From an uncultured Lachnospiraceae bacterium (GTDB lineage Bacteria; Bacillota; Clostridia; Lachnospirales; Lachnospiraceae): a DNA stretch of 29,227 nt. The translations under genes and the position numbers were made by a program. A model generated the notes under the pieces. It was not told the origin of the DNA. It searched no databases and saw nothing but the letters and a program-made list of their open reading frames with translations. Location: NCBI GenBank assembly GCA_910588755.1, contig CAJUQZ010000022.1:3728-32954 (forward strand), read 5' to 3'. Position 1 is the stretch's first letter. Each line of letters opens with the position of its first letter. Shown piece after piece: positions 21,921-29,227 of this stretch.

Positions 21921-22223
21921 TTATTTCCCGCGAACGTCCAGCTTCTTGTCAAAGCCTGCAAGCTTAAAGACCTCCATCACCTCGCTGCCCACATTCACCA
22001 CGCAGAATGTCCCGCCTGCCGCCTGCATCTTCTTGTAGGCGGCGAGCACCTCCCGCAGGCCGGACGAGGCGATGTACTCGAGCCTGTCAAAATCCAGTAC
22101 CAGCTCCTTGACCTCTGAAAGCGCGCCGATCTCCTTTCCAAGCTCCGGTGATGATTTCGTGTCGAGCCATCCCTCCACGGCGAGAACGACCTTGTCATTT
22201 TCTAACGTTTTTGTGATTGTCAT
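21921..22223 (-). CDS. STAS-domain anti-sigma-factor antagonist (SpoIIAA/RsbV-like), copy 2
   Basis: The sequence reads MTITKTLENDKVVLAVEGWLDTKSSPELGKEI...LDFDRLEYIASSGLREVLAAYKKMQAAGGTFCVVNVGSEVMEVFKLAGF. The S-x-G-L motif is present. An AAGGAGGAG SD lies upstream. Confidence 0.9.
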   Translation of the reverse strand: MTITKTLENDKVVLAVEGWLDTKSSPELGKEIGALSEVKELVLDFDRLEYIASSGLREVLAAYKKMQAAGGTFCVVNVGSEVMEVFKLAGFDKKLDVRGK

Positions 22224-22234
22224 ATTGCTCCTCC

Positions 22235-25307: not shown

Positions 25308-28300
25308 CTACTCAAAAAATCCCAGCTTGTCGAGCGCGTCAACGGCGTTTTCCAGATAGCGGTCATCTGTGATTGGCCACTTGTAACCCAGGCGGTAGAG
25401 CACCTGCGTAGTAAACTGGTTCTGATACCCGACTGTGTAAATCTCCTCCTCGTTTCTCGACGCATAGGCAATCAGCCCGGAAACGGCATCGCTGTCCTCG
25501 TGGCCCGCCGCGTACGTCTTCACTGCCTGCTCAAATGTCTCGTCCGCCACGATCTGGATATCAAAACCGTGGTTTCTCATGGCGTAAATCAAATCACCCA
25601 TATAAATCTGGTGACTATTGCACGCATGGTAGACCGTAAACCGCTTATCCGTCCCCGCCAGCTTTAAAATCGCCACCGCCGTGGAGTCAATCGGTGAAAA
25701 TTCCGCGCGCTCGTTCATGCCGCTCATGGGGAACATACCCACGGCCACATAGCCGCGGATGCCGCGCAGGAAACCGTTTGTGACGGAGTTAATCTGGAAC
25801 TCGCCGTCCGAATCCCGGCTCATCAGGTTGCCCACGCGGATAATTTTCGCGTTCAAGCCGTTCTGCGCAGCCTCCAGCACATAGCGCTCCGCCATGAATT
25901 TCGTCCTGATGTACTCGTTGGTAATGCGCTGTCCGATATACAGTTCATGCTCGCCCAGCTCCCTATCTTGACCAGGTTGGTCATTTATTCCTTCTCCCGC
26001 GACAGACACGGTGGAAATCTGTATCAGCCGCCGTCCCAGCTCGCTGCACAAAGCTATCAGGTTCCTTGTCCCATCCACATTGATCCGCTGCAGAGAGTCG
26101 TCGGCCGCAAAGTGCTTGACGCAGGCCGCGCAGTTGATGAGCGTCCTGAACGGATAGCGCTTTGCCTTCTCCAAGGATTTCGCCTCTGTGATATCTCCCT
26201 CTATGCAGATGATGCGCTCCCCGAACAGTTCCTCGCAAGGGTCGTCAAAATAGTACATCAGCATATTCATCAACCGTCTTTCAGGGGACACGTAGCTGCC
26301 CTTTCGCACCAGCGCATACACCTTGCCTTCCTGGGTGTCCAGATATGCCTTGAGCACATGGATTCCCAGAAAGCCCGTAGCGCCTGTCAACAGGATATTT
26401 CCGATCGCCTCCTCCTTTACCAGGTCTGCGTTCTTTGCCCTGTTTGGCAGCAGGACATGCTGAATCTTCTCATAGTTGTAATCTGTAATCTCGTTTTTCT
26501 CTACCGTCTCCTCCACGGTATCCTCGTACACCTGTGCTGCCAGTTGTCTGACGGTAGGGTGCTTGAAAATATCCGCGTACACGACAGGCAGTTTTTTGGC
26601 AAGGCACAGCACCGCAATCTTGGAGGCCGTAAGGCTCGTTCCGCCCAGTGTGAAGAAATTGTCGTCTATGCCGACTTTTTCCATGCCAAGCGCCTTCTCA
26701 AACATCTCGCACAGCTGTCTTTGCACCTCGTTGACAGGCGGTTCGTAGCCGTCCCGCTCCGCCTGGATTTCAGGCATCGGAAGCGCCCGCTTGTCAATCT
26801 TGCCGCCCGGCATCAACGGCATGTTCTCAAGATGGATATAAAATGCCGGAATCATGTACTCTGGCAGAAGCGGCTCTAAAAATGCCTGCCATGCCGCCGT
26901 CTCCGGGGCAGCCCCGGTATAGTAGGCCGCGATATACTTGTTGCCGCCCTTCTCAATCACCGTGACTGCTGCCTCTTTAATTCCCTCATGGGAGAGCACA
27001 GCGCCCTCAATCTCGCTAAGCTCCACCCGGTAGCCGCGAATCTTTACCTGGGAGTCAATGCGCCCGATGTACTCGATATTGCCGTCGCCCCTCATGCGCA
27101 CCATGTCCCCTGTGTGGTACATTCTGGCATCGTCCGCGCAGGTTGTAAACGGATTGGCCACAAAGGCGGCCGCCGTCTTTTCCGGAAGGTTGTGGTATCC
27201 CCTTGCGATCTGCCGCCCGGCAAGGCACAGCTCCCCGGACGCGCCCACAGGCAGGCGGTTTAATCCCTCGTCGAGCACATAGCAGCGCACGTTTGTCTGT
27301 GCCTTTCCGATTGGAATATTTTTGTACTCTTTGTCCACCACAAACTCTGTGGAGGACACGGTATTCTCCGTCGGCCCATAGCCGTTAATCATCGTGTAGC
27401 TTCTATTATAATAGCGCTTAAACTTCTCGCCGCCCAGCGTCAGATAACGCAGCGCGCAGTTGTCCGTCAGAATCTCCGCCACCAGTTCACCCATCTGCGT
27501 GGGGAATGTGGCTATGGTAATCTTCTCATTGCGAATGGTCTCTGCCACCTGCAGCGCGTCCTTGCGGACGGATTCCGGGAAAATATACAGCAGCGCCCCG
27601 CACGCATGCGCCATAAACAGGTCGTGCACAGAGGCGTCGAAGCAAAAGCTTGCAAACTCCGCGATGATATCCTCTGGCGTAAAGTGTAAGAAGTTCACTG
27701 TGTGCATAATCAGGTTGACCAGGTTTCTGTGCTCGAGCATCACGCCCTTTGGCTTTCCCGTGGAGCCGGACGTATAGATCATGTACGCTAAGTTTTCCGG
27801 CTTTGCCTGTGGAAGCGCGGCAGTGCGTTTGAAGTCCCTGCCCTTCTCCTCCACCTCATCAAGCCAGATCACATTGCCCTGGTAAAACTCCACAAGCCCC
27901 GCGTATTCCCGCACTGCGAGCAGATTGTCCGCGCCCGAGTCCGAGAGCATGTATTCGAGTCTGTCCTGCGGATACTCCGGGTCAAGCGGCACATACGCGC
28001 CGCCGGCTTTCATCGCGCCGATATAGCCGATGACAAACTCTTTGGTTCTCCCTGACAGGATTCCGGCCACCTTCTCTGTGCCAAATCCATTTTTCAGCAA
28101 TTGTTCTGCCACATAATCGGACATCTGATCCAGCTCGCGGTAGGTGATTGTTCCATTTTCATCGCGCACCGCCGGCCTGTCCGGGTAATGCTCCACCGAC
28201 TGGCGGAACAGATCGACAAACGTCTTGCCGGTATATGCCGGATTGTCTGTCATCTTGCTGCACTCCTCAAACAGCAGCCTGATCTGATCGGCGTATCCGC

Positions 28301-29227
28301 CCTCTGCCAGACCGCTTTCTTCTGTGTCAGTAAACGCGCCTGATGACGTGCTTCCTGCCCTGTCAGCTGACGTGCCTTCTGACATGCTTCCTGCCTTGTC
28401 AGCTGATTTGCCTTCTGCCACACTTCCTGCCTTGTCAGCTGATTTGCCTTCTGACACACTTCCTGCCTTGTCAGCAGACATATTTGCTGACAGGTCTACC
28501 GTCTTGTTTGCCGCGAGCGAGAAATTCTCGAGAATATAGTCGATGGATTCCGCCTCAAACAAATCTTTTCTGTATTCCAGCTCGTATACAAAGCACCCGT
28601 TCTCGATGCTGACCGCCAGTGATACCGGCGCCTTGGCAGCATTTAAGTGCAGCGGGACTTCCTCCGCCTTCTCCTGTCCTATGGAGTCAAATACAAAGCT
28701 CTCCCCCTGGTACACCAGCATCGCCCTTGGCTGAATCTGGTATGCCCTGCTGATCTCCGAGAACGGATAGATGTCCATATCCATCTCATTCATGAGCTGT
28801 TCTTTCAGTCCCTGGAAATAGTGTGCCACATCACCGTCTAGGTCGCAGCGCACCGGGAGCGTCTTTACCAGCATTCCAACCGTATCCGAAAGGCGCGAGT
28901 CGTTCCGCCCGTGATAGATGGTCGTAAACACGGCTGTCTTTTTGAAATTGTATTTTGCCAGCAGGAGACCGAATACGCCGGTAAAAAATACATTCTCCGT
29001 GATTCCGTATGCTTCGCAGAACTTATGTACGTTTTCTGTCGTCAGGCGCTCGTCAACAAACCGCACATTGCCAACGGACGGCTTCTCCTCCTGCTTATCT
29101 GGATAAAAGCAGGTGTCTCCGCCGCAGTCCGCGTATACGCTGCGGTAATATTCCTCCGCCTTTTTATAAGCGTCTGTCTGCAGCGCCGCCTCATGGGTTT
29201 CCGGTGTAACGCCGGCACAGCAGTCTG
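25308..29227 (-). CDS. Non-ribosomal peptide synthetase, terminal module C-A-T-R (thioester reductase release). The 5' end lies beyond the right window edge.
   Basis: The frame is open from base 29225 downward; the track's M at 29066 is an internal GTG. A C-terminal part of a condensation domain comes first. The A-domain cores are LAYMIYTSGSTGKPKGV, NGYGPTE, GELCLAGRQIARGY, YHTGDMV, GRIDSQVKIRGYRVELSEIE and PGGKIDKRAL. The carrier-domain motif is DNFFTLGGTSL. The reductase motifs are ILLTGATGFLG and YIRTK. Confidence 0.95.
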   Translation of the reverse strand, partial: DCCAGVTPETHEAALQTDAYKKAEEYYRSVYADCGGDTCFYPDKQEEKPSVGNVRFVDERLTTENVHKFCEAYGITENVFFTGVFGLLLAKYNFKKTAVFTTIYHGRNDSRLSDTVGMLVKTLPVRCDLDGDVAHYFQGLKEQLMNEMDMDIYPFSEISRAYQIQPRAMLVYQGESFVFDSIGQEKAEEVPLHLNAAKAPVSLAVSIENGCFVYELEYRKDLFEAESIDYILENFSLAANKTVDLSANMSADKAGSVSEGKSADKAGSVAEGKSADKAGSMSEGTSADRAGSTSSGAFTDTEESGLAEGGYADQIRLLFEECSKMTDNPAYTGKTFVDLFRQSVEHYPDRPAVRDENGTITYRELDQMSDYVAEQLLKNGFGTEKVAGILSGRTKEFVIGYIGAMKAGGAYVPLDPEYPQDRLEYMLSDSGADNLLAVREYAGLVEFYQGNVIWLDEVEEKGRDFKRTAALPQAKPENLAYMIYTSGSTGKPKGVMLEHRNLVNLIMHTVNFLHFTPEDIIAEFASFCFDASVHDLFMAHACGALLYIFPESVRKDALQVAETIRNEKITIATFPTQMGELVAEILTDNCALRYLTLGGEKFKRYYNRSYTMINGYGPTENTVSSTEFVVDKEYKNIPIGKAQTNVRCYVLDEGLNRLPVGASGELCLAGRQIARGYHNLPEKTAAAFVANPFTTCADDARMYHTGDMVRMRGDGNIEYIGRIDSQVKIRGYRVELSEIEGAVLSHEGIKEAAVTVIEKGGNKYIAAYYTGAAPETAAWQAFLEPLLPEYMIPAFYIHLENMPLMPGGKIDKRALPMPEIQAERDGYEPPVNEVQRQLCEMFEKALGMEKVGIDDNFFTLGGTSLTASKIAVLCLAKKLPVVYADIFKHPTVRQLAAQVYEDTVEETVEKNEITDYNYEKIQHVLLPNRAKNADLVKEEAIGNILLTGATGFLGIHVLKAYLDTQEGKVYALVRKGSYVSPERRLMNMLMYYFDDPCEELFGERIICIEGDITEAKSLEKAKRYPFRTLINCAACVKHFAADDSLQRINVDGTRNLIALCSELGRRLIQISTVSVAGEGINDQPGQDRELGEHELYIGQRITNEYIRTKFMAERYVLEAAQNGLNAKIIRVGNLMSRDSDGEFQINSVTNGFLRGIRGYVAVGMFPMSGMNERAEFSPIDSTAVAILKLAGTDKRFTVYHACNSHQIYMGDLIYAMRNHGFDIQIVADETFEQAVKTYAAGHEDSDAVSGLIAYASRNEEEIYTVGYQNQFTTQVLYRLGYKWPITDDRYLENAVDALDKLGFFE
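28351..28478 (-). repeat. In-frame 36-nt tandem repeats (about 3.5 copies) encoding SADKAGS(V/M)(S/A)EG(K/T) in the C-A interdomain linker of the NRPS
   Basis: The plus-strand units begin at 28351, 28387, 28423 and 28459: cttcctgcc(c/t)tgtcagctga..tgccttctg.ca... The fourth unit is diverged. Confidence 0.9.

Follow-up and report, generated by a model that had tools for sequence, protein, structure and literature searches.

In the 29,227-nt stretch of an uncultured Lachnospiraceae genome analysed here (contig CAJUQZ010000022.1; hereafter the window), the last genes are best explained as the downstream portion of an operon of five genes, which encode a MATE exporter with an RsbW-like HATPase_c_2 domain fused at its C-terminus (MatE-K), a non-ribosomal peptide synthetase (NRPS), a phosphopantetheinyl transferase (PPTase), a sensor-PP2C-kinase fusion and a STAS protein. 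On balance, we favour the reading that this operon belongs to an AusA-like family and carries a partner switch that lacks a sigma factor and most likely has the exporter of the cluster as its output. The evidence comes from gene order, domain content, the conservation or decay of motifs, and the conservation of linkage, all of which were observed directly.

Operon layout and the NRPS-PPTase spacer

The four genes within the window lie on one strand in the order NRPS, PPTase, fusion and STAS, with the gaps of 224, 65 and 11 nt that the first-pass annotation gave (Table 1). The strong terminator that had been placed at the end of the train was also recovered, as a hairpin with ~20 paired positions, flanked by a preceding A-tract and a following U-tract (MFE -26.2 kcal/mol, z = -6.7; 0/200 shuffles folded equally well). 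As claimed previously, no U-tract terminator intervenes: no minus-strand terminator-like sites were found in the three intergenic gaps, and the few 5-6-bp terminator-like matches all fell within coding sequence and did not exceed the number in shuffles (7 versus 4.2 +/- 2.4 expected).

Table 1 Features of the window
Feature	Position	Strand	Basis
NRPS, 3' part	25308..29227	minus	Pfam Condensation, AMP-binding, PP-binding, NAD_binding_4
NRPS-PPTase spacer, 224 nt	25084..25307	minus	repeats and hairpins
PPTase, 219 aa	24424..25083	minus	Pfam ACPS, E = 7e-19
Sensor-HAMP-PP2C-kinase fusion, 707 aa, TTG start	22235..24358	minus	Pfam HAMP, SpoIIE, HATPase_c_2
Fusion: sensor, two TM helices	23720..24358	minus	
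Fusion: HAMP	23567..23716	minus	Pfam
Fusion: PP2C	22784..23491	minus	Pfam SpoIIE, E = 2e-48
Fusion: RsbW-like kinase domain	22238..22771	minus	Pfam HATPase_c_2, E = 3e-15
Fusion: disordered Q-rich insert within kinase domain	22469..22627	minus	
STAS protein, single-domain (anti-sigma-antagonist type), 100 aa	21921..22223	minus	Pfam STAS and STAS_2, E = 9e-14
STAS: predicted phospho-site Ser53 (codon)	22065..22067	minus	alignment
Intrinsic terminator closing the train, bidirectional-looking	21853..21897	minus	folding
Paralogous MatE-K, 598 aa	14224..16020	minus	Pfam MatE and HATPase_c_2
Second switch, remainder	7537..14202	minus	Pfam
Second switch: cNMP-binding protein	13708..14202	minus	Pfam
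Second switch: free RsbW-like kinase	13168..13611	minus	Pfam
Second switch: STAS	12667..12963	minus	Pfam
Second switch: X-MFS, 967 aa	9731..12634	minus	Pfam
Second switch: GNAT	9137..9724	minus	Pfam
Second switch: HAMP-SpoIIE	7537..9144	minus	Pfam

The earlier proposal of co-transcription held in part. A single co-oriented train running to a terminator supports it, but in the window lineage the structured 224-nt spacer has room for an internal promoter or RNA-processing site, so that NRPS and PPTase may not be strictly co-transcribed there. An 11-nt direct repeat occurs four times in this spacer (25246..25289). The spacer also folds into three stable hairpins, none of them followed by a U-run (MFE -82 kcal/mol, z = -5.1), and has a weak promoter-like match (9/12 positions). 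It was seen only in contigs of the window lineage (99.5-100% identity), where it may allow the signalling genes to be transcribed independently of the NRPS; the corresponding junction in relatives is 14-24 nt. Taking all of the relatives' junctions, the genes are 14-33 nt apart or overlap by 4 nt, so that co-transcription is very likely in those relatives.

The NRPS reading frame stays open up to the window edge, and the part within the window comprises the end of a C domain followed by A, T and a terminal thioester reductase (NAD_binding_4). The complete protein, as seen in locus L013, has 3060 aa in the order A-T-C-A-T-C-A-T-R. The best NCBIfam match of the NRPS is AusA, at 660 bits and thus below the 2500-bit cutoff. 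The PPTase, with an ATG at 25083 preceded by GGAG and a length on which public gene calls agree, is by its sequence an Sfp-type 4'-phosphopantetheinyl transferase; its NCBIfam matches (HetI, AcpT and AusB) each score below their own cutoff. Membership of a widespread gut and rumen Clostridia family of AusA-like NRPS-reductase clusters best explains these data, and the predicted product of the family is a small peptide aldehyde.

Linkage in related clusters

A survey of homologous clusters, the check that had been proposed for this linkage, found the association of NRPS-reductase and partner-switch genes conserved in 13 lineages (the window lineage, L007, L011, L016, L020, L021, L080, L096, L098, L099, L100, L181 and L182). 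In these locus samples, which are biased by the manner of their retrieval, STAS adjoins the NRPS in 13/13 NRPS lineages reached. Clusters of this kind with STAS come from Blautia, Oscillospiraceae, Ruminococcus and Lachnospiraceae MAGs; NRPS homologues of ~60% identity are abundant in Blautia, and in the genome scan the relatives among the matches listed had 39% identity or less. The order MatE-K, NRPS, PPTase, PP2C-kinase, STAS was kept at 80% and at 63% identity of the fusion protein, with different flanks. Other orders were also found. NRPS-anchored searches gave MatE-K, A, NRPS, STAS, free kinase and PPTase in L098 (Blautia), MatE-K, NRPS, STAS, kinase and PPTase with SpoIIE and MFS further on in L099, and NRPS, STAS and PP2C-kinase in L100. 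L181 has a LytTR regulator, MatE-K, NRPS, PPTase, STAS, a second MatE-K, SpoIIE and a kinase, while L096 has MatE-K, NRPS, STAS and PPTase without a PP2C.

Since STAS adjoins the NRPS in every related NRPS-reductase cluster reached, the linkage is no accident. A fortuitous adjacency of two unrelated same-strand units, to which the 224-nt spacer and its promoter-like match might point, is therefore a highly improbable account, given that the linkage persists at 35-90% protein identity, through rearranged orders and between unrelated flanks. The PP2C-kinase and STAS pair does stand alone in L009, with neither NRPS nor MatE-K, which indicates a portable module rather than an NRPS-specific invention; such portability is the other point in favour of chance adjacency.

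The partner switch and its probable target

The signalling proteins appear to be catalytically intact. In the fusion-family alignment, the metal-binding Asp residues of the PP2C and the N, G1 and G2 boxes of the kinase are invariant, and the top PDB fold match of the fusion (AF2 model, pLDDT 79) is the Rv1364c RsbU+RsbW structure 3ke6 (E = 9e-19). The STAS protein scores 57.8 bits against NCBIfam ant_ant_sig, above the 53.45-bit cutoff. Its predicted phospho-site, Ser53, is conserved in 20/20 aligned homologues and aligns with S58 of SpoIIAA and S56 of RsbV.

The first-pass annotation had noted that a sigma factor was missing, and this was borne out: no sigma-factor domain was detected in the 22 largest window ORFs scanned against Pfam, and no sigma factor in the called-gene tables of the 13 related clusters or among the Pfam families common to 129 neighbouring ORFs of 18 cassette loci. 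By contrast, its view that the partner itself was missing or unlinked did not stand. In the same genome, just beyond the window edge, a 583-aa gene with MatE and HATPase_c_2 domains ends 2 nt upstream of the NRPS start, and MatE-K lies beside the NRPS in 8 of the 9 lineages in which that flank is visible. Thus, the linked partner of the switch is probably the kinase-like domain on the cluster's MATE export pump, rather than a sigma factor.

A canonical switch, in which STAS releases an unlinked sigma factor sequestered by an RsbW-like domain, is unlikely on these data. The output would be transcription of this operon or of others, and if the sequestering domain were the MATE-borne one, it would serve as a membrane-anchored anti-sigma factor. 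In favour of this reading, none of the three canonical signalling parts is missing and their catalytic motifs are intact; an RsbW-like domain tethered to the membrane could also hold a sigma factor, and the direct repeats, together with the LytTR regulator upstream of relatives' MatE-K, show that transcriptional control also exists. Against this, besides the sigma factor searches, what is conserved is linkage to a domain borne by a transporter, not to a sigma gene, and the STAS protein scores below the NCBIfam equivalog cutoff for SpoIIAA.

The MatE-K family is large, with 1766 representatives at 50% identity matching at E <= 1e-3; most are ~590 aa long and have the HATPase_c_2 domain at the C-terminus. 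The G2 ATP-lid motif is found in 2/66 full-length MatE-K proteins, versus 113/115 PP2C-fused kinases, and free kinases also retain it. In NRPS-linked MatE-K domains, the Asn of the N box and the G1 box are retained, making residual nucleotide binding or kinase activity possible. This would fit a quite unlikely alternative in which MatE-K is an input: the exporter would act as a flux sensor (transceptor), its C-terminal domain binding or phosphorylating STAS in response to transport activity, and STAS would act on another target. L096, in which MatE-K and STAS occur with no other kinase in the operon, is consistent with such a role, as are known STAS-only proteins with unknown targets such as SypA (PMC8256260). 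However, the near-absence of the G2 lid argues against kinase activity, most clusters have a separate intact kinase, and the neighbourhoods of the 18 cassette loci share no conserved candidate for a downstream target.

MatE-K also meets the switch away from the NRPS. In metagenome contigs it directly adjoins STAS, 25-96 nt apart, although STAS or PP2C was seen in only 10 of the 30 metagenome loci that were anchored on MatE-K and had 5 kb or more of flank, and cassettes of STAS, MatE-K and sensor-PP2C-kinase without an NRPS occur in other Clostridia (L024, L028, L032, L061, L073, L087 and L093). Cassettes that lack NRPS and PPTase place the conserved partner in the transporter. They weigh against a direct, post-translational action of the module on the synthetase or PPTase, as had been suggested earlier, and neither enzyme contains a STAS- or RsbW-like docking domain in Pfam or NCBIfam. 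Nothing was found to point to either as a target, and we regard this as very unlikely, even though the genes are adjacent, STAS lies between NRPS and PPTase in several relatives, and there is the precedent of All4160 in Anabaena, a biosynthetic enzyme acted on by a module that resembles a partner switch (bioRxiv 10.64898/2026.04.08.717354).

For the favoured output, the exporter, we infer the protein-protein contacts, the phosphorylation and the sign of regulation as follows. The membrane sensor protein, which has a PDC-like domain outside the cytoplasm and HAMP after it, would set the phospho-state of STAS Ser53 through its opposing PP2C phosphatase and intact RsbW-type kinase. Unphosphorylated STAS would then dock on the degenerate RsbW-like pseudokinase domain that the MATE pump carries at its cytoplasmic C-terminus, or else the docking partner might be the intact kinase domain, switching between STAS and pump. 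Docking would turn peptide-aldehyde export up or down.

Known systems and a second switch in the window

The RsbU/RsbW/RsbV and SpoIIE/SpoIIAB/SpoIIAA modules of Bacillus share with this switch the PP2C phosphatase, the GHKL Ser kinase and the STAS antagonist with its conserved phospho-Ser, and the catalytic motifs here are intact. The present system differs in that it has no linked sigma factor, unites phosphatase and kinase in a single membrane sensor protein, and has a further, degenerate kinase-like domain on a MATE transporter. Rv1364c of Mycobacterium tuberculosis is a sensor-RsbU-RsbW-STAS in one polypeptide, with a cytoplasmic PAS sensor, that acts on SigF. It is the best structural match (PDB 3ke6) and also a sequence match, with the same phosphatase-kinase order, whereas the present STAS is encoded separately and the sensor consists of an extracytoplasmic domain with two TM helices, together with HAMP. 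The non-canonical partner switches SypE/SypA (Vibrio fischeri), BtrU/V/W (Bordetella) and HsbR/HsbA (Pseudomonas) similarly pair a dual kinase/phosphatase with a STAS-only protein and have an output without a linked sigma factor (PMC8256260; PMC6482189). Unlike the present system, they have no transporter-fused RsbW-like domain or natural-product cluster; SypE moreover has the order kinase-REC-phosphatase, and the target of SypA is unknown. In Anabaena HenR/All4160, as would be the case here, STAS phosphorylation controls a biosynthetic or envelope process directly, not via a sigma factor, but STAS is fused to a glycosyltransferase, whereas here STAS is free and a kinase-like domain is fused to the exporter.

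STAS regulates a transporter in the Mla ABC system (MlaB). The fold also acts on membrane transporters as the C-terminal STAS of SLC26/SulP (PMC8256260). In those cases the STAS domain either forms part of the transporter polypeptide or serves as a constitutive subunit, while here the transporter bears a putative kinase-like receptor and STAS is free and predicted to be phosphorylatable.

AusA/AusB (aureusimine/phevalin) similarly combine an NRPS ending in a thioester reductase with a dedicated PPTase, with two modules rather than the three found here. The gut Clostridia dipeptide-aldehyde/pyrazinone NRPS family was reportedly treated by Guo et al. in 2017, and ruminopeptin is said to be the work of Schneider et al. 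Published descriptions of this family exist (PMC10794557; PMC12327764), and in the literature on AusA-like and gut Clostridia NRPS clusters we found no discussion of STAS, PP2C or MATE-kinase genes.

Separately from this finding, the window contains a paralogous MatE-K with the same architecture as the exporter upstream of the NRPS, at the head of a second transporter-linked switch (Table 1). It is 27% identical to the C-terminus of the NRPS-linked MatE-K, and its G2 box is degenerate. In L181 and L099, equivalents of the second-switch genes sit within the NRPS cluster itself.

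The NRPS operon and its boundaries

Gene calling and Pfam searches returned the same four co-stranded genes as the first-pass annotation, encoding an NRPS, a PPTase, a fusion of a membrane sensor with a PP2C phosphatase and an RsbW-like kinase (hereafter the fusion), and a STAS protein, with gaps of 224, 65 and 11 nt between them. The proposal that this train closes at a terminator was borne out by a hairpin of -26.2 kcal/mol (z = -6.7), and, as had also been claimed, nothing terminator-like was found on the minus strand in any of the three gaps. Weak terminator-like matches inside genes occurred in a number within chance expectation. 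Promoter-like matches in the 65-nt gap were discounted, since their -10 box directly adjoins the ribosome-binding site and a transcript starting there would therefore lack one.

The NRPS reading frame remains open as far as the window edge, and the window was placed by exact-match look-up on public contigs, up to 90 kb long, that reach past it. On these contigs of the window genome, among them ERZ14864783 NODE_175, the complete NRPS comprises 3060 aa with the domain order A-T-C-A-T-C-A-T-R, and a gene for a 583-aa protein that combines MatE with HATPase_c_2 (MatE-K, a MATE exporter with a C-terminal RsbW-like domain) stops 2 nt ahead of the NRPS start codon. The operon thus reads MatE-K, NRPS, PPTase, sensor-PP2C-kinase, STAS. 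The C-terminus of the NRPS carries NAD_binding_4 and a TIGR01746-like region and is followed by the PPTase, the AusA-type combination of a reductase with a dedicated PPTase. The nearest kin of the two enzymes are AusA and AusB and the gut dipeptide-aldehyde family; however, AusA-type and gut dipeptide-aldehyde synthetases are bimodular (A-T-C-A-T-R), whereas the window NRPS is trimodular, with three A and two C domains, and scores fall under the equivalog cutoffs, the AusA model giving 660 bits against a cutoff of 2500 and hence less than equivalog-level similarity. Within the NRPS, a 36-nt tandem repeat (3.6 copies, 90% identity) codes for a low-complexity linker, (SADKAGSVSEGK)n, between C and A domains.

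Directly after the NRPS stop codon, the 224-nt spacer between the NRPS and PPTase genes carries four direct repeats of 11 nt (minus strand, GAATAGACTGN), and 3' of these lie three stable hairpins (fold z = -5.1), none of which is followed by a U-run. Rfam at gathering thresholds gave no match in the window, which rules out a known riboswitch or leader as the identity of this structured spacer; nor was it a dispersed repeat in any locus compared. The insert is restricted to the window lineage, and its repeats and hairpins could form an operator/promoter or an RNA-processing element. At the other end of the train, an ORF of 119 aa, hydrophobic at its N-terminus and without a match in Pfam, converges with the STAS gene, its 3' end reaching into the terminator hairpin that it shares with the train; it is gene-called on every public contig of the window lineage. 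A divergent methionyl-tRNA-synthetase-like gene, also convergent with the operon, reaches 240 bits, where the cutoff of the MetRS equivalog model is 587; it adjoins the cluster in the window lineage only and might represent a spare copy or a resistance copy.

Features of the window and of compared loci (L-numbers, homologous loci in other genomes or metagenome contigs), with coordinates in each sequence
Feature	Sequence	Coordinates	Strand	Pfam domains
NRPS, 3' part (1305 codons)	window	25308..29227	-	Condensation, AMP-binding, PP-binding, NAD_binding_4
36-nt tandem repeat in NRPS	window	28351..28479
11-nt direct repeats in spacer	window	25246..25289	-
PPTase	window	24424..25083	-	ACPS
Fusion (707 aa)	window	22235..24358	-	HAMP, SpoIIE, HATPase_c_2
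Q-rich insert in fusion	window	22469..22627
STAS protein (100 aa)	window	21921..22223	-	STAS
Terminator hairpin	window	21853..21897
119-aa ORF	window	21530..21889	+
MetRS-like gene	window	18965..21292	+
Second transporter-linked switch	window	7537..17027	-
MatE-K paralogue	window	14224..16020	-
HAMP-SpoIIE protein	window	7537..9144	-
MalT/BTAD-AAA trio	window	1760..7540	+
Matching trio	L009	12455..17974
Direct repeats upstream of MatE-K	L098	6500..6745
Direct repeats upstream of MatE-K	L099	5400..5825
LytTR response regulator	L181	752..1489

The signalling proteins

Judged by sequence, the signalling parts fit an Rsb/SpoIIA-type module in everything but the sigma factor. The PP2C domain of the fusion matched SpoIIE (E = 2e-48), as expected of a PP2C phosphatase, with metal-binding Asp residues invariant across the fusion family (D321, D339, D465, D514 and D515) and fold matches to RssB, SiaA, RsbX and SpoIIE. 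The kinase domain matched HATPase_c_2 (E = 3e-15), in keeping with a GHKL Ser kinase of RsbW/SpoIIAB type, and in the family alignment its N-box (EExxxN), G1 box (DxG) and G2 box (GGLG) were invariant, as were residues E564, E565, N569, D651, G653, G675, G676 and G678. Within this domain, a disordered Q-rich insert of ~55 residues (pLDDT < 50) separates the N-box from the G1 box; nearly all homologues lack it, and in an 80% identical relative it is shorter.

An AF2 model of the fusion (pLDDT 79) places a TM helix, an alpha/beta extracytoplasmic domain, and a second TM helix with HAMP ahead of the PP2C and GHKL domains, and the order of secondary-structure elements suggests that the extracytoplasmic domain is PDC-like. 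The top Foldseek/PDB match was 3ke6 (E = 9e-19), a structure that comprises the RsbU and RsbW domains of M. tuberculosis Rv1364c. Like Rv1364c, the fusion joins PP2C and, after it, an RsbW-like kinase in a single polypeptide; unlike Rv1364c-like regulators, in which a C-terminal STAS domain is fused, it ends at the kinase, and STAS is a gene of its own 11 nt downstream. It also differs from SypE, which has an N-terminal RsbW-like kinase, a central receiver and a C-terminal PP2C, whereas the order here is sensor-HAMP-PP2C-kinase and Pfam Response_reg gave no match in the fusion. The STAS protein (Pfam E = 9e-14, NCBIfam ant_ant_sig over its cutoff) is a single-domain protein with a candidate phosphorylatable serine. 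This residue, Ser53, aligns with S58 of SpoIIAA and S56 of RsbV, and the Ser is kept in 20 of 20 homologues.

Conservation of the NRPS-switch linkage

The five-gene order of the window operon recurs in two loci whose fusions are 80% (L007) and 63% (L011) identical to that of the window, with junctions of 14-33 nt or a 4-nt overlap and unrelated flanks. Blautia and Oscillospiraceae supply abundant homologues of the NRPS fragment (about 60-74% identity), and around these the same parts recur with their order shuffled: MatE-K, A, NRPS, STAS, free kinase, PPTase in a Blautia sp. (L098); MatE-K, NRPS, STAS, kinase, PPTase, acyltransferase, HAMP-SpoIIE, one further gene and a 989-aa MFS protein in L099; NRPS, STAS, PP2C-kinase in L100; MatE-K, NRPS, STAS, PPTase in L096; a truncated or chimeric NRPS, STAS, PPTase in L182; and a LytTR regulator, one further gene, MatE-K, NRPS, PPTase, STAS, a second MatE-K, SpoIIE and a free kinase in L181. 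The matches listed from a scan of species-representative genomes are relatives of at most 39% identity and form a background sample rather than an orthologue survey; among them, an NRPS-reductase adjoins the module in at least four distant loci (a Ruminococcus MAG, L016; a Lachnospiraceae MAG, L020; Candidatus Colinaster equi, L021; and a rumen Clostridia MAG, L080).

Taken over all lineages, STAS lies next to the NRPS in 13 of 13 (four of them from among the genome matches listed), and MatE-K does so in eight of the nine in which that flank is visible. The first-pass annotation had held that absence of such linkage from homologous clusters would undo its claim of an NRPS operon with its own switch; the linkage is conserved, and chance adjacency of NRPS and switch genes is scarcely credible. 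Direct action of the switch on the NRPS or the PPTase is very unlikely, and an NRPS-free cassette of STAS, MatE-K and sensor-PP2C-kinase occurs in ~15 of 80 genome loci among the matches listed (for example L024, L028, L032, L061, L073, L087 and L093).

The window holds a second, transporter-linked switch on the same strand as the NRPS train, in the order APH, MatE-K, cNMP-binding protein, free RsbW-like kinase, STAS, MFS, GNAT, HAMP-SpoIIE; the MFS protein has 967 aa, with an N-terminal region of ~570 aa without domain assignment. As L181 and L099 carry equivalents of these genes within the NRPS cluster, the modules of the window probably represent a single system split in two. Elsewhere in the window, a PP2C gene is abutted by three genes, for a 931-aa MalT/BTAD-like regulator, a 648-aa AAA ATPase and an unassigned protein. 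The L009 locus, whose fusion homologue is 68% identical, has only a PP2C-kinase and STAS pair, beside a hybrid histidine kinase, and a matching trio abuts this stand-alone pair; such trios may recur beside these switches.

The exporter as candidate switching partner

No sigma domain was found by Pfam in the window ORFs scanned or in the called-gene tables of related clusters, and the loci scanned held no co-encoded cognate sigma factor of the Rsb/SpoIIA type. When 129 other ORFs of 18 cassette loci were surveyed, Sigma70 was absent among the Pfam families common to at least two ORFs, the top shared family being ABC_tran (seven ORFs). The earlier reading that the sigma factor is missing therefore stands as regards the sigma factor itself; as regards the partner it does not, a candidate being linked in the form of the RsbW-like domain on the upstream MatE-K exporter. 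An unlinked sigma factor would suit signalling parts of Rsb/SpoIIA type, and we consider it an unlikely partner beside a candidate encoded in the operon itself.

For the NRPS-linked MatE-K the MatE core is known from contig annotation and the sequence covered is the last 196 aa, in which the RsbW/SpoIIAB-like domain was recognised at E = 1.5e-11. The window paralogue matched MatE (Pfam E = 8e-33), in keeping with the 12-TM core of DinF-type MATE transporters, and TIGR00797 fell marginally under its cutoff (145.2 versus 147.4). PDB sequence matches were DinF-BH and PfMATE; in these solved structures the C-terminus of the MATE protein faces the cytoplasm, so the geometry for contact with the switch is feasible. 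Its operon position predicts that MatE-K exports the cluster product. The G2 motif is kept in only two of 66 full-length MatE-K proteins, versus 113 of 115 PP2C-fused kinases, and free kinases retain it (e.g. GGLG or GGMG); the N-box Asn is also gone from several cassette MatE-K copies. NRPS-linked MatE-K domains share 60-63% identity between lineages, with the common motifs AEEM(T/V)VNII, RIRDNG and FDIHGIELVK. An exhaustive HMMER search with the C-terminal domain found at least 1766 representatives at 50% identity (E <= 1e-3), most of them ~590 aa long with the match at residues ~440-590, which indicates that the architecture is common. STAS directly follows MatE-K in several metagenome loci, and of 30 MatE-K-anchored metagenome loci flanked by 5 kb or more, 10 contained a STAS or PP2C gene; the link is frequent, not obligatory.

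The simplest model using all conserved parts, and the one that we favour by a small measure, is exporter gating. The membrane sensor would set the phosphorylation state of STAS through the opposing PP2C and kinase domains, and the MATE pump's degenerate kinase-like domain would be the switched partner. This domain may bind unphosphorylated STAS or else the intact kinase, the latter being conceivable because RsbW-type proteins act as dimers, and binding would modulate peptide-aldehyde export. The exported product is an attractive candidate for the signal sensed. MatE-K might alternatively serve as a flux sensor, a role that we regard as quite unlikely.

The exporter-gating model can be extended to the view that partner switching has been rewired, so that in place of a sigma factor it directly gates an exporter of secondary metabolites, with STAS or its kinase docking on the MATE-fused pseudokinase, as a conserved, built-in control of gut Clostridia peptide-aldehyde NRPS clusters and of many other Firmicutes MATE pumps; this we advance tentatively, judging it slightly more apt to fail than to hold. 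Outputs other than a sigma factor have precedents in SypA, BtrV and HsbA (PMC8256260), and one is reported in a preprint for an Anabaena STAS-glycosyltransferase (bioRxiv 10.64898/2026.04.08.717354). If exporter gating holds, the MATE pumps with an RsbW-like pseudokinase, a family of at least 1766 representatives at 50% identity, would represent an undescribed post-translational control of efflux, and a clear case of partner switching acting beyond sigma factors. A full-text literature search, with most subscription journals outside its scope, found neither anti-sigma antagonists nor MatE + HATPase_c_2 proteins tied to such clusters, a silence that, given this scope, is weak evidence of novelty. 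The peptide-aldehyde/pyrazinone NRPS clusters of gut Clostridia yield host-protease inhibitors; since native production is difficult to elicit, work on them has so far relied mostly on expression in other hosts or on synthetic chemistry (PMC12327764). The conserved sensor, switch and exporter inside the clusters make them experimentally tractable: the extracytoplasmic sensor domain could be de-orphaned, the putative Ser53 switch locked on or off, and the tail of the exporter deleted.

In Blautia-type clusters, the stretch ahead of MatE-K contains the terminator of the preceding gene and, after it, two direct repeats 20 nt apart (TTCGTTCCCT or ATTCATTCCCTG), and a LytTR response regulator lies upstream of the L181 cluster. 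Together, these features hint at quorum-sensing-like transcriptional control.
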